Assembly: GCA_964561455.1 (NCBI GenBank)
Contig: CAZLPS010000001.1
Coordinates: 48,977 to 112,976, forward strand
Length of the DNA stretch: 64,000 bases
Direction of reading: 5' to 3'
Source of the DNA: an uncultured Opitutales bacterium
GTDB lineage: Bacteria > Verrucomicrobiota > Verrucomicrobiia > Opitutales > JABDGR01
The position numbers and the translations under genes were made by a program. The notes under the pieces are model-generated. The model was not told the DNA's origin and did no database searches. It was given only the letters and a program-made list of their open reading frames with translations. Shown here in pieces: positions 11,963 to 26,103 of this stretch. Every line of letters starts with the position of its first letter. The stretch's first letter is position 1.

Positions 11963-12970
11963 ATGAAACGTGCTCTGATTACCGGCATCACCGGTCAGGA
12001 TGGTTCCTATCTCGCCGAGCTCCTGCTCGAAAAAGGCTACGAGGTTCACGGCATCGTGCGCCGCAGTAGCAGTCTCAATCGCGGCCGCATTGACCACCTG
12101 CGCCCCTGGGAAACCGGCAAGAAGCAAAAGTTGTTTCTGCATTACGGGGATTTGGCGGACAGCGTGTCCCTCGTCAAGTTGCTCTACGAACTCAAGCCGG
12201 ATGAGATTTACAACCTCGCCGCACAGAGCCATGTCCGCGTGAGCTTCGACATTCCGGAATACACCCTCGACGTCACCGGGGCCGGCGCCGGGCGCATCAT
12301 GGAAGCCATTCGCGAGAGCGGCCTGGCGAAGAAAGTCCGCTTTTACCAGGCGTCTTCCTCGGAAATGTTCGGCAAGGTGCAGGAAGTACCGCAGACGGAA
12401 ACCACGCCGCTGTACCCACGCTCGCCGTATGCCTGTGCGAAGGTGATGGCCCACTACCTGACGATCAACTACCGCGAGTCGTACAATCTTTTTGCCTGCA
12501 GCGGCATTTTGTTCAACCACGAAAGCCCGCGACGTGGTGAATCCTTCGTCACCCGCAAAATCACGCTGGCGGCGGCGCGCATCAAGTTGGGCCTCCAGAA
12601 AAAGCTGGTCCTCGGCAATATTGATTCCAAACGCGACTGGGGTTTTGCCAAGGAATATGTCGAAGGTATGTGGCGGATGTTGCAACAGGATAAACCCGAC
12701 GATTACGTGCTCGCCACCAACGAAACGCACACGGTGAAGGATTTTCTCTCCGCCACGTTCGGCGCGCTCGACATGGATTGGAAGGAGCACGTGGCGTTCG
12801 ACCCCCGCTTCCTGCGCCCGGCCGAAGTGGACCTCCTCATCGGCGACTATCGCAAGGCGAAGAAAAAACTCGGGTGGGAACCAAAGACGCGCATGGCCGG
12901 TTTGGCGAAATTGATGGTGGAGCACGATTTCGAGCTGGCCAAGCACGAAGCCCGGGCCGCTCAGATTTAA
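11963..12970 (+). CDS. gmd: GDP-mannose 4,6-dehydratase
   Basis: [60 protein letters not shown]. Confidence 0.96.
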
Positions 12971-12972
12971 CC

Positions 12973-13734
12973 ATGTCCATGAACGTCTCGGTGGTGATTC
13001 CCGCGCGGCTGGCCTCGACCAGGCTGCCGCGCAAGGTGCTGGCTGATTTGGGCGGCAAACCCGTCCTGCGGCATGTTTGGGAGCGCGTGGCACGCATGAA
13101 GCGGGCGACCGAAATATTAGTCGCCACTGATAGCGAGGAAGTGGCGACCGTCGTCGCGGAGTGGGGTGGGCAGTTTGTCATGACTTCACCGGACTGCCGC
13201 AGCGGCACTGAGCGCATTGCCTCGATCCTCGACGGTTTGAAAGGCCAATTCATCTTGAACGTGCAGGGCGACGAGCCGTTTATTGATCCAGTTTTGCTCG
13301 ACGCGCTGGTGGAGCGCTTTGCCAATTTCGGTGGTGACGTCGTCACCCCGGTGTATCCCATCCGTGAATGGGCGACGCTGGTGAACCCGGCCGTGGTCAA
13401 AGTCGTTCGCGGCACCGACGGGCGCGCGTGGTATTTTTCCCGTTCACCCATTCCCCACCTGCGCGGCGTGCCCGTTGAACAATGGCCGGCGCGGGGATTG
13501 CACTGGGGCCATTTGGGCGTGTACGGCTACGCCCGTTCGAAACTGGCGGTGTACGCCAAACTGGTGGAAAGCCCGCTCGAAGGGATCGAGGCGCTCGAAC
13601 AACTGCGATTTCTGGAAGCCGGCTGGCGCATTCAGACGGTCGAAACCGATTATCATGCGGTCGCGATTGACACGCCGGAGGACTTGATTCGCGCCCGCTC
13701 CCTGCTCGCCCCTCCCGCCACCATTTGCCCATGA
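12973..13734 (+). CDS. kdsB: 3-deoxy-manno-octulosonate cytidylyltransferase (CMP-Kdo synthetase)
   Basis: VIPARLASTRLPRK, SGTERI, NVQGDEP, YFSRSPIP, EALEQLRFL. Confidence 0.93.
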   Translation: MSMNVSVVIPARLASTRLPRKVLADLGGKPVLRHVWERVARMKRATEILVATDSEEVATVVAEWGGQFVMTSPDCRSGTERIASILDGLKGQFILNVQGDEPFIDPVLLDALVERFANFGGDVVTPVYPIREWATLVNPAVVKVVRGTDGRAWYFSRSPIPHLRGVPVEQWPARGLHWGHLGVYGYARSKLAVYAKLVESPLEGIEALEQLRFLEAGWRIQTVETDYHAVAIDTPEDLIRARSLLAPPATICP

Positions 13735-14720
13735 ACAAGAAATCCACCCCTTCCGCCCGACTTTCCGCGCTGGTAACCGGGCGCAACGTCCTGGTTGCTG
13801 AGTCCAAGGCGCTGAAAATCGCCGCCGCCGGCCTCGACGAAAACTTCTCCCGTGTGGCTGCGTTGATCCGCGTGGCAACCGGCAAGGTTGTCGTCGCGGG
13901 CTTGGGCAAATCCGGCTTGGTGGCGCAATCCATCGCCGCCACCTTGTGCAGTCTCGGCACCCCGGCCGTTTTTATGCACGCGGGTGAGGCGGCGCACGGG
14001 GACATTGGAGTCGTGCAAAACGGCGACGTCGTCATTTTCGTATCCAAAAGCGGTGCCACGCCGGAATTGATTCGGCTTTGTGCCCCCGTGCGGGCGCTTG
14101 GCGCAAAATTGGTGGCCCTCACGGGCAATCTCCGTTCCCCGCTGGCCGGCGAAGCCGATGCGCTGCTGGCCGCAGTGGTGGATCGCGAAGCCGACCCCTT
14201 GGACTTGGCGCCGACCAGCAGCGCCGTGGTCGCGCTGGCCCTGGGCCACGCCCTGGCCGTCGCCCTCGCGCAGGCCCGCGGGTTTACCGAGGAGGATTTT
14301 GCGCGGACCCATCCGTCGGGCCAATTGGGCCGCAACCTTTCTCTGCGCGTGGCCGATGTCATGCATGCTTTGACGGAAATTTCCGTAATGGCACCGGGCG
14401 ACAAGATGCGCGATGTGGTGGTTGCCATGACTCGTCGGCCCCACGGCGCCGCCTGCGTGGTGGACAAACGCGGAATCCTCGCTGGCATCATCACGGACGG
14501 CGACATTCGCCGGGCCCTGCAAAAGCACGATGACATCCGCCCGATGACGGCCGCGGATGTGATGACCGCAAATCCGGTGCGCGTCACCCCGGAAACTTTG
14601 CTGGGTGACGCCCTGCGGCTGATGGAAGACCGTCCCTCCCAGATTTCAGTTTTGCCGGTGGCAGACACCGGCGGCCACTGCCTCGGCCTCTTGCGGCTGC
14701 ATGATATTTACCAGCACTAG
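13731..14720 (+). CDS. kdsD: Arabinose-5-phosphate isomerase (SIS + CBS)
   Basis: GLGKSG, EAAHGDIG, SKSG, APTSS, HPSGQLG, two CBS domains; ATGA overlap with kdsB. Confidence 0.92.
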   Translation: MNKKSTPSARLSALVTGRNVLVAESKALKIAAAGLDENFSRVAALIRVATGKVVVAGLGKSGLVAQSIAATLCSLGTPAVFMHAGEAAHGDIGVVQNGDVVIFVSKSGATPELIRLCAPVRALGAKLVALTGNLRSPLAGEADALLAAVVDREADPLDLAPTSSAVVALALGHALAVALAQARGFTEEDFARTHPSGQLGRNLSLRVADVMHALTEISVMAPGDKMRDVVVAMTRRPHGAACVVDKRGILAGIITDGDIRRALQKHDDIRPMTAADVMTANPVRVTPETLLGDALRLMEDRPSQISVLPVADTGGHCLGLLRLHDIYQH

Positions 14721-20014: not shown

Positions 20015-21103
20015 ATGTCTCATAATTATGCCGTTATTTTAGCCGGAGGCCGGGGCGAGCGCTTCTGGCCGCAAAGCCGGATTGTTCGCCCCAAACACTT
20101 GTTGCCCATTGTGGGCGACCGCCCAATGGTCGCGCAGACGGTCACGCGAATGGCGGGCTTGGTGCCCCCGGATCACGTGTTCATTTTGACCAATGCCGAG
20201 CATGTCGCCGCCGTGCGCGCCGCCTGTCCGGAAATTCCCGCCGGGCAAATCATTGGCGAACCCGTGGGTCGCGACACCGCACCGGCCGTGGCTTTGGCCG
20301 CGCTCCTCGTCCGGCGCCGTGATCCCGACGGCGTATTGGCACTCTTGGCCGCCGATGCCGCCATTCACGATGACGCCAGTTTTCGCGCGGTCTTGGGCGC
20401 CGCCTTCGCCACGGCCGCCACGCAGGACTATATTTTTACCGTCGGCATTCCTCCGGCCTATCCCGCCATTGCCTATGGCTACCTGCATCGGGGCGAAAAA
20501 CTTGGCGAACATGAAGGCCGTCCATGGTACAAAGTCGAGCGGTTTGTGGAAAAGCCTGACCAAGCCACGGCCACGCGCTACTTGGCTGAGGGCGGTTATT
20601 GGTGGAACGCCTGCATGTTTATTGGACGGGCCACGGTTCTCGAAACGGCCTTCGGCCGGCAGGCCCCAGCCATCGCCGCTGGCATGGCGGAATTGAACAC
20701 GCGCTTGGACGCCGGCGCCGCCCTGCCAGTGGCGCTTGCCGCGGTGTATCCAACACTGACCAAAATTTCCGTGGACTATGCAGTCATGGAAAAGGCCCCG
20801 AATGTGGCGGTATTTGAAGCTTCTTTTGATTGGGACGATGTCGGCGAATGGCCCGCGCTCGTTCGGCACTCCCAACCGGACGCCGCCGGCAATGTCACCC
20901 GGGGTGACGTGGTTCTGCATGAAGCGCGCGGCAATATCGTCATTGGCGAATCCGGCCACCTCCTTGCCCTTTTGGGGGTGGACGACTTGGTGGTGGTGCA
21001 TACCCCGGACGCGACGTTGGTGTGTCCCAAGGCCCGGGCGCAAGAGCTGAAAAAATTGCTCAAAAATGTCGAAGCCAGACCCGGCGGCACGCATTGGTTG
21101 TAA
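20015..21103 (+). CDS. manC: Mannose-1-phosphate guanylyltransferase
   Basis: VILAGGRGERFWPQSR, EPVGRDTAPA, FVEKPD, SVDYAVMEK, WDDVGEW. Confidence 0.92.
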   Translation: MSHNYAVILAGGRGERFWPQSRIVRPKHLLPIVGDRPMVAQTVTRMAGLVPPDHVFILTNAEHVAAVRAACPEIPAGQIIGEPVGRDTAPAVALAALLVRRRDPDGVLALLAADAAIHDDASFRAVLGAAFATAATQDYIFTVGIPPAYPAIAYGYLHRGEKLGEHEGRPWYKVERFVEKPDQATATRYLAEGGYWWNACMFIGRATVLETAFGRQAPAIAAGMAELNTRLDAGAALPVALAAVYPTLTKISVDYAVMEKAPNVAVFEASFDWDDVGEWPALVRHSQPDAAGNVTRGDVVLHEARGNIVIGESGHLLALLGVDDLVVVHTPDATLVCPKARAQELKKLLKNVEARPGGTHWL

Positions 21104-21121: not shown

Positions 21122-22165
21122 ATGGCCCTTTACCTGGTTACCGGCGTTGCCGGATTCATTGCGTCGCGCGTGGCGGCGCTCTTGCTGGCTGACGGCCATG
21201 CCGTTGTCGGCCTGGATAATCTGAATGATTATTACGACGTGCGGTTAAAGGACTACCGGCTGGCGCAGTTGCTGGGCGAAACCCCCTGGCTGCCCGGCGG
21301 GGACGCCCGTCAATCGCAATTCGGCGGGCCCGGCCGACGCATCGCGGAAGACGGGCGGTTCGTCTTCGAGGCTGTGGACGTCGAAAATTTGGCCGCGTTG
21401 GATGCCCTTTTTCGTGATTTCCACTTTGATGCGGTGTTCAATCTGGCGGCGCGTGCCGGGGTGGGGTACAGCGTGGAAAATCCGCATGTGTACCTCACGA
21501 CGAACACGCATGGAACCCTGAATTTGCTGGAATGCATGCGCCGGCACGGTGTGAAAAAGCTCGTGCTGGCCTCCACTTCATCGCTTTACGCCGGTTGTGC
21601 GATGCCGTTTACGGAGGATTTGCCCGTGAATACACCGCTGTCGCCGTACGCAGCAACCAAAAAGGCGGCGGAGTTGATGGCCCACAGCTACCATCAATTG
21701 CACGGCCTCGACATTTCCGTGGTGCGTTATTTTACCGTCTTTGGCCCGGCGGGCCGGCCCGACATGAGCATCTTTCGCTTCATTCAATGGATCGAAAACG
21801 GCCAGCCGCTCCAACTCTTCGGCGATGGCCGGCAATCCCGTGATTTCACCTTCGTGGACGACGCCGCCCGTGGCACCATTCTGGCGGCAAAACCAGCCGG
21901 CTATGAAATCATCAACCTCGGTGGCGGGCGCTCTCCAACGTCGCTGGCGGAAGTCATCGCCCGCATCGAAATCGCCTTGGGCAAAAAAGCCGTTGTCCAG
22001 GGGCATCCGCCCATGGCAGCCGACATTGTGGCCACCCGGGCCGATATTTCCAAGGCCGCCAAATTGTTTGGCTGGCAGCCGCAGGTCTTGTTTGACGACG
22101 GCCTCGCCGCCACCGTCATTTGGCATCGCCGCCATGCCGCCTGGCTGGGACTGATCCCTTTGTAG
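21122..22165 (+). CDS. NAD-dependent epimerase, UDP-glucuronate 4-epimerase-like
   Basis: TGVAGFI, NLAARAGV, ASTSSLY, YAATKK, RYFTVFGPAGRPDM. Confidence 0.85.
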   Translation: MALYLVTGVAGFIASRVAALLLADGHAVVGLDNLNDYYDVRLKDYRLAQLLGETPWLPGGDARQSQFGGPGRRIAEDGRFVFEAVDVENLAALDALFRDFHFDAVFNLAARAGVGYSVENPHVYLTTNTHGTLNLLECMRRHGVKKLVLASTSSLYAGCAMPFTEDLPVNTPLSPYAATKKAAELMAHSYHQLHGLDISVVRYFTVFGPAGRPDMSIFRFIQWIENGQPLQLFGDGRQSRDFTFVDDAARGTILAAKPAGYEIINLGGGRSPTSLAEVIARIEIALGKKAVVQGHPPMAADIVATRADISKAAKLFGWQPQVLFDDGLAATVIWHRRHAAWLGLIPL

Positions 22166-22175
22166 ATAATTGAAA

Positions 22176-23228
22176 ATGCTTGCAGAAACCCAAAGGACCA
22201 AGGTGAAAGTTCTCGCCCTTATCCCCGCCCGCTCCGGCTCCAAGGGCATTCCCCATAAGAATGTGCAATGGGTTGCGGGCAAGCCGCTCCTTGCGCATTC
22301 CATTGTGCAGGCGCGCGCCAGTGCCGTCGTGGACCGGGTGATTGTCAGCACCGACAGCGAGGCCTACGCCGCCATTGCGCGGCAATACGGGGCCGAAACA
22401 CCGTTCCTGCGGCCGGCGGATATCTCCGGTGATTCCGCCACGGACTGGCAGGTTTTTCACCACGCCCTGGCCTGGTTGCGTGAACACGAAGGTCTCTGTC
22501 CGGAAATCGTGGTGCACTTGCGGCCAACCCACCCCCGGCGTGATCCCGAGGACATTACGGCTGCGGTCGAATTGCTGCTGGCCCATCCGGAGTGGGACAG
22601 CGTGCGCTCCGTTGTGTCGGCACCGCATACGCCCTATAAAATGTGGCTCAAGAATGACGATGGCACCCTGCGGCCCGTGGCCACTTGCGCCCACCCCGAG
22701 GCGTACAATGAGCCTCGCCAGGTCTTGCCGCCCACCTACCTTCAGAACGCCGCCATTGATGTCACCCGCGCCGCAACGGTTTTGGCAAAACACTCCATGA
22801 CTGGGAACAAAATCGGCGCTTTTTTAATGACGGAATTTCAGGACATTGACACGCCGGAGGAACTGGAACAGGCCGCCCGCGCCTGGCACCAGCCCGGCCG
22901 CACCCCTGCGGGCAAGACTTTTGTCTTCGATATTGATGGTGTGATTGCCCGCCTCACCCCGGACAATGACTACCGGCGCTCCGAGCCGCACGAGGAAGTC
23001 ATCGCCATCGTGCGCCAGTTGCACCGCTGCGGCAATCGCATCATTTTGTACACGGCTCGCGGATTTGTCACCGGGATTGACTGGCGGGAACTCACCTCCC
23101 GGCAATTGGCCGCTTGGAATGTTCCCTACCACGAATTGCATTTTGGCAAGCCGGCCGGGGATTTCTATGTGGATGACCGGATGGTTCCCCTCAGTGAGAT
23201 TCTCCGCATTTCCGCTGGCGACGCTTAA
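22176..23228 (+). CDS. Acylneuraminate cytidylyltransferase (NeuA-like) fused to a C-terminal HAD phosphatase
   Basis: IPARSGSKGIPHKN, STDS, FLRPADISGD, HLRPTHP, DIDT; then FVFDIDGVI, YTARG, GKPAGDFYVDDR. Confidence 0.85.
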   Translation: MLAETQRTKVKVLALIPARSGSKGIPHKNVQWVAGKPLLAHSIVQARASAVVDRVIVSTDSEAYAAIARQYGAETPFLRPADISGDSATDWQVFHHALAWLREHEGLCPEIVVHLRPTHPRRDPEDITAAVELLLAHPEWDSVRSVVSAPHTPYKMWLKNDDGTLRPVATCAHPEAYNEPRQVLPPTYLQNAAIDVTRAATVLAKHSMTGNKIGAFLMTEFQDIDTPEELEQAARAWHQPGRTPAGKTFVFDIDGVIARLTPDNDYRRSEPHEEVIAIVRQLHRCGNRIILYTARGFVTGIDWRELTSRQLAAWNVPYHELHFGKPAGDFYVDDRMVPLSEILRISAGDA

Positions 23229-23274: not shown

Positions 23275-24765
23275 ATGAATATACCAAACTCACCTCTGTT
23301 CATCTTTGAAATGGCCAACAACCATCAAGGCAGCCTTGATCATGGCCTGCGCATCATCCAGGAAATGTCGGCGATCGTGCGCCGCTACGGCATCCGCGGC
23401 GCGGTCAAGCTGCAGTATCGCGATTTGGCCTCTTTCATTCACCCCCGGCACCGGCACGGTGAGCACAAACACATTAAGCGCTTCTTGCAAACAGAGCTGA
23501 GCCGGGAGAATTACCACACGCTGGCCCAAGCCATTCGCGACCAGGGCATGATCTCCATTTGCACTCCGTTTGATGAACCCTCAGTCGAGGACCTGGTGAA
23601 CCATGGCATTGAAATTATCAAGGTTGCATCCTGCAGTGCCAACGATTGGCCACTCCTTGAGCGCATGGTGCAGGCGCAAAAGCCCATCATTTGCTCCACC
23701 GGCGGTTTGCGCATTGAGGAAATTGATCAGGTGGTCAATTTCTTTGAGCACCGGCACGTGGCGCGTCTGTCGCTTTTGCATTGTGTCGGCCGCTACCCAA
23801 CCCCCGACGACGGCATCCAGCTCAATTTCATGGAACGCATGATGCGCCGCTATCACCAGCACGAGGTGGGATACTCCGGCCATGAAGCGCCGGATAACAT
23901 TCACGTGGCTCTGTGCGCGGTGGCCAAGGGCGCCAGGATCCTTGAGCGTCATGTGGGTGTGGCCACTGAATCCATTAAGCTCAACGCCTACTCCATGAAT
24001 CCGGCGCAGACCGCCCTTTGGGTGGAAGCCGCGCTCAAGGCCCTCGTCATCGGTGGGGACCCGGCAGGCGAGAAGCATGTCACGGAAGATGAAAGTGAGT
24101 CACTGCTTTCGCTGCGCCGTGGTGCGTTTGCCGCCCAACCGGTCGCCCAGGGCGAGTTGCTGACCCGGGAGAAGGTCTTTTTTGCGATGCCCTGCCAGCC
24201 GGGTCAATCCACGGCCACTGAATGGCAGCCCACCATGGTCGCTTCCCGCGATTATGCCGTCGGCGACGCCCTGGGGGAACGCCGCAAGACCGGACTGACC
24301 AACCAGTTACGCGCCATCATCCACCAGGCCAAGGGGCTGCTGCGTGAGGCCCGCATTGAAATTGGACCGAATTTCACCATCGAAATGTCCCATCATTATG
24401 GCGCGGAAAAGTTTCGCTCCTGGGGTGCCCTGATCGTGAATCTGATCAACCGGGAGTATTGCAAAAAGTTGATCATCATGCTCCCGGCCCAGCGCCATCC
24501 CAACCATCGCCATTTAAAAAAGGAGGAAACTTTTCAATTGTTGTGGGGTGACTTGGAAGCCGTCCTCGATGGCGTGACCCACCGTTTGCTGCCGGGCGAC
24601 ATGCTGCTCATCAATCGCGGCCAATGGCACCAGTTCACCACCGTGGGTGGATGCATCTTTGAAGAGGTTTCCACCACCCACATTATCGGCGACAGTTATT
24701 ACGAAGACCCCGCCATTGCCGTTCTGGACCCCATCCGCCGCAAAACGGTGCTGGATATGTGGTAA
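23275..24765 (+). CDS. Nonulosonate synthase (NeuB family) with SAF domain and C-terminal D-lyxose-isomerase-like cupin
   Basis: FEMANNHQG, KLQY, TPFDE, KVAS, STGG, LHCVGRYPT, GYSGHE, LERH; C-terminal YCKKLIIMLPAQRHPNHRHLKKEETF...WHQF. Confidence 0.87.
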   Translation: MNIPNSPLFIFEMANNHQGSLDHGLRIIQEMSAIVRRYGIRGAVKLQYRDLASFIHPRHRHGEHKHIKRFLQTELSRENYHTLAQAIRDQGMISICTPFDEPSVEDLVNHGIEIIKVASCSANDWPLLERMVQAQKPIICSTGGLRIEEIDQVVNFFEHRHVARLSLLHCVGRYPTPDDGIQLNFMERMMRRYHQHEVGYSGHEAPDNIHVALCAVAKGARILERHVGVATESIKLNAYSMNPAQTALWVEAALKALVIGGDPAGEKHVTEDESESLLSLRRGAFAAQPVAQGELLTREKVFFAMPCQPGQSTATEWQPTMVASRDYAVGDALGERRKTGLTNQLRAIIHQAKGLLREARIEIGPNFTIEMSHHYGAEKFRSWGALIVNLINREYCKKLIIMLPAQRHPNHRHLKKEETFQLLWGDLEAVLDGVTHRLLPGDMLLINRGQWHQFTTVGGCIFEEVSTTHIIGDSYYEDPAIAVLDPIRRKTVLDMW

Positions 24766-24807
24766 CCGCCAGCGGCCCGGATTTGCGCGGCGACCGTGGA
24801 CAACCTC

Positions 24808-26103
24808 ATGAAGATCGGCATATGCATCGCGGATTACGATATCCGCAACGACTTGGCCGACTTGCTGCGCGGCCTCGCGCGGCGGCACGAGGTGGTGGTG
24901 CTGGCCACCCCGATTGAACTGCCGCGAGTCGGCGAGGGGCCCTGGGAGAAGCGTCCGGTCCGGATAAAAATCAGCTGGTGGAACCGGATGTGGCTGGCGC
25001 TATTCGGTTATTTGGGCCGGGTGCCGGCCAGCAAGGACAACTTTTTGCAAAATTCGTTTTTCCTTTTGCAAAAACTTCCGCCCGCCCGCCGGGGCCGCGC
25101 CGCGGCCTGGCTGCGGCTGCGGGCAAAATTGCCGCCGCTGTTTACGTTTGACCGGTTGTTGAAGCTCTTGCGCGGGTCCGTCGCCAGCATGGATGATCTC
25201 GACGCGATTCTCTTCATTACCAATGTCGCCAGCCCCGAGTTATTGGCGCAAGCTCTGCGGATGGGCCGCCCCTGTGCGGCGTACGTTTACAGTTGGGATC
25301 ATGCGCCGAAATTTGACCGCTTCTCCCGGCGGGTGGCCTGCTATTTCACCTGGAATCAAGGGATCGCCGACGATTTGGCCCGGTTGCAGGATATCCCCTT
25401 GTCGCACACCCGGCCTGTCGGCGCCACCCAGTTGGTTTTTATTCGCGACTACTTGAATTCTCCAGCAGCGCGCCGCCGGAAGATTCCATTCCGTTATGCC
25501 TATTACGGCTGCGCCATCGCCGTGCCGGGCCTCGTCGAGCAGGAAGTCCGTTTGGTCGAATGGCTGGCGGACGAACTGGCGCTTGAAGACCCCGGACTGA
25601 AACTCATTGTCCGCCCCTATCCCATGTTGCGTGACACGACTTCTTTTCGCCGCCTCCGCCAGCGGCCCAACGTGGTTTTCGACGATGAATACCGCGAGGA
25701 AGTGCAGGAGCGGGTGATTCCCCGCGTGGACGTGTTTTCCAAGTTCAACCTGCAGGAGCATGCTGAGTTATTCTTTCATTGCGGCACCACCATGGGACTC
25801 GAGGGCGCCTATTTCGACGCCCCGATATTCTTTCTCGCCCCTGAGGATGTGGATTTTGGCGTGCTGCCCGGCGGTGACCTGCATGTCAGCCGGTTCTTTC
25901 GCACCTTTCATAATGAAAAGTACCTGATGTTGTCCCGCTTTCCCAACGTCGTGGTGCGGGCGGCGGATTTGCGCCCGCGGATCCGCGCCGCCCTCGCCGG
26001 CCGCGAATCCTATTTGCCCTACAATCGGGCCGTGCGTGCCGAAACGCCCTTGCGATCCATGGATGAAATTGCCGGGGACATTGCCTCCGGCCTCCAGCCA
26101 TGA
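24808..26103 (+). CDS. Hypothetical GT-B-like protein, candidate nonulosonate transferase
   Basis: YSWD, LIVRPYP, GTTMGLEGAYFDAP resemble GT-B/glycerophosphotransferase-like folds; position directly after the synthase. Confidence 0.5.
   Translation: MKIGICIADYDIRNDLADLLRGLARRHEVVVLATPIELPRVGEGPWEKRPVRIKISWWNRMWLALFGYLGRVPASKDNFLQNSFFLLQKLPPARRGRAAAWLRLRAKLPPLFTFDRLLKLLRGSVASMDDLDAILFITNVASPELLAQALRMGRPCAAYVYSWDHAPKFDRFSRRVACYFTWNQGIADDLARLQDIPLSHTRPVGATQLVFIRDYLNSPAARRRKIPFRYAYYGCAIAVPGLVEQEVRLVEWLADELALEDPGLKLIVRPYPMLRDTTSFRRLRQRPNVVFDDEYREEVQERVIPRVDVFSKFNLQEHAELFFHCGTTMGLEGAYFDAPIFFLAPEDVDFGVLPGGDLHVSRFFRTFHNEKYLMLSRFPNVVVRAADLRPRIRAALAGRESYLPYNRAVRAETPLRSMDEIAGDIASGLQP

Follow-up and report, generated by a model that had tools for sequence, protein, structure and literature searches.

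In the DNA analyzed here, a 64,000-nucleotide stretch from an uncultured Opitutales bacterium (the window), a single gene encodes a 350-residue protein, P0001, in which an N-terminal CMP-nonulosonate synthetase is followed by a short linker and then by a cap-less HAD phosphatase domain of about 100 residues. As judged from the sequence, both domains are present with complete catalytic motifs. The best-supported reading is that a HAD other than KdsC was recruited as a ulosonate-phosphate phosphatase that would hand its product to CMP activation. More specifically, we propose with moderate confidence that the HAD domain dephosphorylates a product resembling Kdn-9-phosphate (Kdn-9-P) and that the fused domain then activates the free acid with CMP. 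Together with the next gene, which encodes a NeuB fused to a cupin (NeuB-cupin), the fusion probably provides a compact and widespread, though putative, pathway by which a sugar phosphate of central metabolism would become an activated surface sugar of the Kdn type. The features of the locus are listed in Table 1.

Table 1. Features of the fusion gene and its neighbors (window positions; residue numbers refer to P0001)
Feature	Position	Strand	Details
CMP-nonulosonate synthetase-HAD phosphatase fusion gene	22176..23228	+	350 aa, P0001; reading frame open
Cytidylyltransferase domain, NeuA/CMP-NulO synthetase type	22212..22880	+	Residues 13-235; PF02348, PDB, and Foldseek matches
Interdomain linker	22881..22913	+	Residues 236-246; pLDDT blocks 73-74; variable and gapped in alignment A1
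Cap-less (C0) HAD phosphatase domain	22914..23210	+	Residues 247-345; TIGR01689, structure matches, invariant motifs
HAD motif I	22929-22943	+	DIDGV; from sequence
HAD motif II	23046-23060	+	T293 in LYTAR; LYTAR(G) at 23046-23063; from sequence
HAD motif III	23145-23153	+	K325 in GKP; from sequence
HAD motif IV	23163-23180	+	DD in FYVDDR; from sequence
NeuB (TIM barrel and SAF-like region) fused to D-lyxose/mannose-isomerase-type cupin	23275..24765	+	46 nt downstream of the fusion
Extended SDR (GalE/dehydratase-like)	21122..22165	+	Possible operon member; ends 4-10 nt upstream of the fusion start
Downstream protein	24796..26103	+	No Pfam or NCBIfam match

A preliminary description of this DNA had proposed the fusion of a cytidylyltransferase to a HAD phosphatase and had quoted the motifs DIDGV and YTARG for the latter. 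A domain HMM search with Pfam and NCBIfam placed both domains in one open reading frame, which bears out the fusion, and both motifs were located in the HAD domain. The candidate start codons are TTG at 22170, ATG at 22176, and a GTG about nine codons downstream (as in the database entry P0002), and the choice among them leaves both domains unaffected. The two-domain model of P0001, obtained with AlphaFold2 on an alignment of 31 homologues, had a mean pLDDT of 89 and a pTM of 0.69, with lower confidence in the linker.

The N-terminal domain is a CMP-nonulosonate synthetase of the NeuA type. PF02348 (CTP_transf_3) matched residues 14 to 146 with an E value of 4.4e-20 and 72.9 bits against a gathering score of 22.6 (Pfam), and the CTP, sugar, and Mg residues (P-loop R and K, PRQ, and DxD) are in place. 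The ARSGSKG, KN, PRQ, and DID motifs line up with 1eyr, and the residues aligned with that structure, R19, K28, R181, Q182, D223, and D225, are invariant in the 31 homologues. The PDB sequence matches of the domain were 9ftb, 6ifd, and 1eyr (E values of 1e-30 to 1e-23), and the modelled domain superposed on CMP-Pse5Ac7Ac, CMP-Neu5Ac, and CMP-Kdn synthetases (Foldseek E values of 1e-23 to 1e-19; TM to target of 0.82 to 0.91). KdsB was a far weaker match both in structure (Foldseek) and in sequence, where its matches to P0001 had E values of 1e-7 or worse. The PseF model TIGR03584 matched residues 13 to 235 (E value of 2.5e-37; NCBIfam), but its 128.7 bits lie under the equivalog cutoff of 205.7, so this model does not assign the sugar specificity. 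Residue D195 (22758-22760) does not vary within the fused family, while the Neisseria, Vibrio, and Prymnesium CMP-sugar synthetases have the Tyr of a "GAIY" motif at this position. This Y179-type pocket residue was considered as a signal of Kdn specificity and was rejected, since the CMP-Kdn synthetase retains the Tyr.

HAD superfamily phosphatases are recognized by four motifs, DxDx(T/V), T/S, K, and an acidic pair of the DD or (G/S)DxxxD form, set on a Rossmann-like core. The C-terminal domain has the HAD core fold in the model, and D252 and D254 (in D252-I-D254-G-V), T293, K325, and D333-D334 are invariant both in alignment A1 (31 homologues with 52 to 80% identity) and in alignment A2 (15 homologues). 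Modelled by itself (pLDDT of 84), the domain is a minimal cap-less HAD, as are 9IQW and 1XPJ. Its closest characterized relative is AfhF of phage HY126 (PDB 9IQW), with a VIA Z score of 11.3 (rmsd of 2.9 over 102 aligned residues), a Foldseek E value of 1e-5, and a phmmer E value of 2.8e-7. Further VIA matches were BT_0820 (2OBB; Z score of 11.2) and Vibrio cholerae 1XPJ (Z score of 10.3; phmmer E value of about 3e-7), and the T4 Pnkp phosphatase, GmhB, and HisB-N ranked next with Z scores of 9 to 10. In contrast, KdsC-type structures were weak matches (Foldseek E values of 1.8e-2 to 1k1e and 5.6e-2 to 4hgr, which is BT1713), and the KdsC/Kdn-9-P phosphatase model TIGR01670 was absent from the NCBIfam matches of P0001 with E values up to 0.01. 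The HAD-like C-domain of murine CMP-sialic acid synthetase (3EWI) reached a VIA Z score of 7.5. The earlier suggestion of a HAD lineage other than KdsC was thus upheld, and the Foldseek and VIA ranking of the model places the domain in the AfhF/EcbF lineage.

The more specific label of an EcbF/BcbF-type phosphatase was right as to the nearest named family. TIGR01689 (EcbF-BcbF) matched residues 247 to 344 with an E value of 2.7e-9 (NCBIfam), but the score of 37 bits is well under the curated cutoff of 162. The gene context also differs, in that canonical members are encoded between a protein of about 500 aa and a small nucleotidyltransferase. Canonical EcbF/BcbF proteins are stand-alone, have about 132 aa, and carry an extra "RNMNT...GNIG" insertion, whereas the window's domain lacks this insertion and is fused to a NeuA-type cytidylyltransferase. 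On the basis of the missing insertion and the score under the cutoff, we treat the domain as a sister subfamily of EcbF/BcbF and not as a member.

AfhF nevertheless offers the nearest functional comparison. It is a Mg-dependent phosphatase that removes the terminal (C5) phosphate from arabinofuranose-1,5-bisphosphate, and the resulting 1-phosphate is converted to UDP-arabinose by AfhE, a bifunctional kinase/pyrophosphorylase (PMC13326640). By analogy, the role proposed for the HAD domain of P0001 would be similar, i.e., removal of a terminal sugar phosphate right before nucleotide activation. AfhF, V. cholerae 1XPJ, and EcbF/BcbF share the minimal cap-less fold and the motifs with this domain at 26 to 32% identity. 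The gene order around canonical EcbF/BcbF (alignment A3) was strongly conserved in 80 metagenome loci, with a protein of about 500 aa, the 132-aa HAD, and an IspD/NTP_transf_3-like nucleotidyltransferase of about 243 aa. The nucleotidyltransferase cluster was found in 57 of these loci, nearly always directly after the HAD and within polysaccharide loci. A single good match to canonical EcbF/BcbF was obtained in 400 Gammaproteobacteria genomes. In one gammaproteobacterial genome (L113), the gene before the canonical HAD codes for a protein with an APH-like kinase region, and the gene after it codes for an NTP_transferase. The chemistry of AfhF and the conserved HAD-nucleotidyltransferase gene order indicate that the wider EcbF/BcbF family is a consistent partner of a nucleotidyl-activation step. 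The canonical trio, whose protein of about 500 aa has no Pfam match, was seen at L116:4347-7153 and about 57 further loci (L116-L195) from gut and environmental metagenomes, and it resembles a cellular version of the AfhE/AfhF module for arabinose activation in the phage.

The cytidylyltransferase-HAD fusion is ancient and broadly distributed. When one genome per species was scanned, relatives with the fusion appeared in at least 584 species genomes, among them Verrucomicrobiota, Bacteroidota, many Lachnospiraceae, Planctomycetota, Proteobacteria, Myxococcota, Chloroflexota, Ignavibacteria, and a Woesearchaeote. This shared architecture and the invariance of the motifs in the 31 homologues argue that the fusion is not due to chance. 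Hundreds of fused forms (90%-identity clusters) in the protein database are named plainly "acylneuraminate cytidylyltransferase" or "CMP-legionaminic acid synthase," and the HAD is hardly ever annotated; public annotation therefore mostly misses the phosphatase domain.

Genetic linkage joins the fusion to NeuB-cupin and, among Clostridia, also to the Maf glycosyltransferases of flagellin. The NeuB-cupin partner in the window matched PF03102, Cupin_2, and Lyx_isomer (PF07385; E value of 1.7e-5), as well as PDB 3g8r (E value of 1.5e-88), and the best matches of its cupin were D-lyxose/D-mannose isomerases (PF07385; 7nzo with an E value of 1.9e-5). Partners were counted in the best 80 loci, of which 72 carry the fusion. 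NeuB-cupin was encoded within 500 nt downstream in 40 of the 72 fused loci and within 8 kb in 10 more, and it was cut by the contig end in 1, for a total of 51. The other 21 had no NeuB-cupin in reach, and in 4 of them less than 1.3 kb of sequence lies downstream. Some carriers of the fusion have no NeuB-cupin at all; of five checked genomes in which NeuB is absent near the fusion, three had only canonical-type NeuB matches elsewhere. No NeuC-, PseB-, or PseC-type genes were present among the recurrent neighbor clusters annotated with Pfam, so the route should start from a central metabolite or sugar phosphate. The SDR encoded upstream of the fusion was considered as a constant partner and was rejected, as a window-like SDR occurred within 8 kb in only 9 of the 80 loci. 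Farther upstream, positions 20018 to 21103 encode a ManC-like mannose-1-phosphate guanylyltransferase of about 361 aa, without the C-terminal phosphomannose-isomerase cupin of the bifunctional forms, and two genes downstream of it a cupin isomerase is fused to NeuB.

The link to Maf was found in Lachnospiraceae flagellar loci (L010:1-16990; also L011, L014, L019, L025, L035, and L037), which encode, in this order, FliD, flagellin, Maf (PF01973), the fusion, and NeuB-cupin, followed by a CDP-glycerol-type glycerophosphotransferase (PF04464) and an IspD-like cytidylyltransferase. Maf enzymes move CMP-nonulosonates onto flagellin, and the product of the cassette beside them should therefore be a CMP-nonulosonate. 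The composition of these loci suggests that the flagellin glycan of these Lachnospiraceae is a Kdn-like acid bearing a polyol phosphate.

In the proposed pathway, the cupin would convert fructose-6-P to mannose-6-P, and NeuB would combine mannose-6-P with PEP to give Kdn-9-P. The Mg-dependent C-terminal HAD domain would then remove the terminal phosphate from a 3-deoxy-ulosonate phosphate, most likely converting Kdn-9-P to Kdn, and the N-terminal domain would use the free sugar acid and CTP to form the CMP-sugar (CMP-Kdn) for downstream transferases. What the HAD domain acts on, in which order the steps follow, and whether the sugar is Kdn or a similar acid are inferences in this scheme. A recruited phosphatase is favored by four lines of evidence, namely, the invariant motifs, the tight linkage to NeuB-cupin, the unrelated HADs that occur elsewhere (see below), and the chemistry of AfhF.

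The scheme has the same chemistry as the Kdn routes of Bacteroides thetaiotaomicron and Prymnesium parvum, in which a sugar-6-P and PEP yield a ulosonate-9-P, the free acid, and then the CMP-sugar; these routes start from mannose-6-P and include a Kdn-9-P phosphatase (PMC6200933). In B. thetaiotaomicron, the enzymes are the Kdn-9-P synthase BT1714, the Kdn-9-P phosphatase BT1713, and a CMP-Kdn synthetase (PMC6200933). However, BT1713 is a separately encoded KdsC-type HAD, whereas the HAD of the window is of the AfhF/EcbF lineage and fused to the cytidylyltransferase. In addition, the window synthase has its own isomerase domain, unlike the Kdn synthases of B. thetaiotaomicron and P. parvum. 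The scheme also parallels a neuA-neuB pair without neuC that is genetically required for capsular Kdn in the Serratia marcescens KL1/KL2 capsule (PMC9000132). There, NeuB also has an extra isomerase-like domain, but of the COG1082 type and not a cupin, and NeuA is described only as cd02513 (PMC9000132).

A survey of Verrucomicrobiota showed that the HAD next to NeuB-cupin varies. Full-length NeuB-cupin was found in 22 of 400 sampled genomes, and 20 neighborhoods were read. The cytidylyltransferase-HAD fusion was present in 3 of the 20, a stand-alone capped HAD-IA (PF00702/PF13419) between NeuB-cupin and a HAD-less cytidylyltransferase in 2, and an NT5C-like HAD (motif WDVDDV) directly after NeuB-cupin in 8. 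These three unrelated HAD types look like non-orthologous displacement, and their occurrence in the same position by NeuB-cupin argues for an obligatory phosphatase step. The NT5C-like HAD sits in a larger cassette (L098:700-10800; also L100-L112) with the order NTP_transferase, SDR, DegT aminotransferase, NeuB-cupin, NT5C-like HAD, TPP enzyme, C-methyltransferase, NUDIX, and radical SAM/SPASM, which probably leads to a ulosonic acid with heavy modifications that has not been described to date.

Other observations stand against the recruited-phosphatase reading. Eight close relatives of the cytidylyltransferase (233 to 265 aa) have no HAD, and five of them still adjoin NeuB-cupin; conversely, NeuB-cupin is missing from the 21 of 72 fused loci noted above. 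Searches with a single protein and with the A2 profile found no stand-alone HAD of the fusion type in five HAD-less genomes, four of which have an adjoining NeuB-cupin, and a split gene was therefore rejected as the explanation for these genomes. These HAD-less relatives indicate that the HAD is helpful but dispensable in cis.

The order of the steps could also be reversed. The HAD would then act first and free the hexose from fructose-6-P or mannose-6-P for the cupin and a non-phosphate NeuB, and the free Kdn would subsequently be activated. The D-lyxose/D-mannose isomerases nearest to the cupin act on free sugars, so the cupin fits a non-phosphorylated synthase equally well, and the recurrent linkage of HADs to NeuB-cupin is compatible with this order too. 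The bacterial Neu5Ac synthase NeuB takes non-phosphorylated ManNAc (PMC8208679), which likewise suits a HAD that acts first. However, the fused HAD and cytidylyltransferase would then perform the first and last steps of the route. Only in the phosphorylated route would both fusions join consecutive steps. A phosphatase for a central glycolytic intermediate would moreover be wasteful, and AfhF and the related or analogous enzymes GmhB, KdsC, and BT1713 act on committed pathway intermediates. The proposed scheme, with dephosphorylation of a committed intermediate right before activation, fits the rule set by AfhF, GmhB, and KdsC. Known Kdn synthases, in addition, take mannose-6-P (PMC6200933). 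Overall, we consider it unlikely that the HAD acts first.

The HAD subtype of the fusion is not confined to cytidylyltransferases. It is occasionally joined to the C terminus of extended SDRs similar to dTDP-glucose dehydratase and GalE (P0259, P0300, P0318, and P0325), and the step order and the final sugar may therefore be more complex than in the scheme above, with a modified Kdn as a possible end product or with another sequence of steps. These SDR fusions, the SDR gene that closely precedes the fusion in the window, and the lyxose/xylulose type substrate of the cupin family are consistent with a HAD that acts on another intermediate, such as a CMP-ulosonate-9-P, an SDR-modified compound, or an eight-carbon acid phosphate derived from lyxose-5-P or xylulose-5-P, in which case the product would not be plain Kdn. 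However, a window-like SDR is rare near the fusion, as shown by the count given above, we know of no CMP-ulosonate phosphate, and the cytidylyltransferase is much nearer to nine-carbon NeuA-type enzymes than to KdsB. Such a substrate is thus improbable, to about the same degree as the reversed order, and dephosphorylation of a Kdn-9-P-like product remains the preferred reading.

Vertebrate CMP-sialic acid synthetase (CMAS/CSS) raises the question of whether the HAD is catalytic at all, as its N-terminal cytidylyltransferase is likewise followed by a HAD-like module at the C terminus. The vertebrate C-domain is KdsC-like; it is reported to have shown no phosphatase activity and to serve in oligomerization as an assembly platform (PMC8636478, citing Oschlies 2009). 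The HAD of P0001, in contrast, is of another lineage (note the low score of 3EWI above) and retains all catalytic residues. None of its four catalytic motifs varies from phylum to phylum. In one Lachnospiraceae genome (L196:3887-9751), moreover, the domain is encoded by a separate gene of 128 aa, which has two Maf genes on one side and a pyruvyl-transferase-like gene and a short NeuB (292 aa) on the other; the 10 kb available contain no cytidylyltransferase. A purely noncatalytic oligomerization module is therefore very unlikely.

It is just as hard to credit that the fusion is a Kdo enzyme, i.e., a CMP-Kdo synthetase with a Kdo-8-P phosphatase that compensates for a missing KdsC, since the window's genome (87.6% complete) does have KdsA, KdsB, and KdsD but no KdsC match, yet a separate KdsB is encoded in the window, the partner of the fusion is NeuB and not KdsA, KdsB matches to P0001 are weak, and 41 of 81 genomes of the same order likewise have no KdsC match, which removes any specific link between the fusion and the missing phosphatase. 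KdsB and KdsD are encoded at positions 12778 to 14720 of the window and KdsA on another contig of this genome, in which no KdsC-type phosphatase was detected. Many of the 41 genomes of the order without a KdsC match are more than 95% complete, and some other enzyme presumably dephosphorylates Kdo-8-P in this order.

No publication on a cytidylyltransferase-HAD fusion was found in literature searches on EcbF/BcbF, 9IQW, and a bifunctional CMP-Kdn enzyme. The present analysis adds AfhF as a characterized relative, the partnership of HAD and nucleotidyltransferase, the displacement by unrelated HADs, and the HAD-less and SDR-fused variants. In its broadest form, our proposal is possible but more tentative than the assignment of the HAD substrate: the cytidylyltransferase-HAD and NeuB-cupin proteins may constitute a complete route with four activities from fructose-6-P, PEP, and CTP to CMP-Kdn, spread over bacteria and some archaea and decorating Lachnospiraceae flagellins via Maf, and the AfhF/EcbF mini-HADs may be a dedicated class of pre-activation phosphatases that was recruited independently for NDP-pentoses and CMP-ulosonates.

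If the recruited-phosphatase reading is correct, the fusion accounts for the phosphatase of Kdn-type pathways, a step to which often no enzyme is assigned; in P. parvum, for instance, a homologue of the Kdn-9-P phosphatase was not found. The protein would also represent a bacterial version of the vertebrate CMP-sialic acid synthetase architecture with an active HAD, whereas no activity is known for the HAD-like C-domain of the vertebrate enzyme. The two-gene cassette could be used as a compact tool for the enzymatic synthesis of CMP-Kdn, and as a simple marker in genomes it could help to predict Kdn-like glycans on the surface or flagella of hundreds of species from the environment and the gut.
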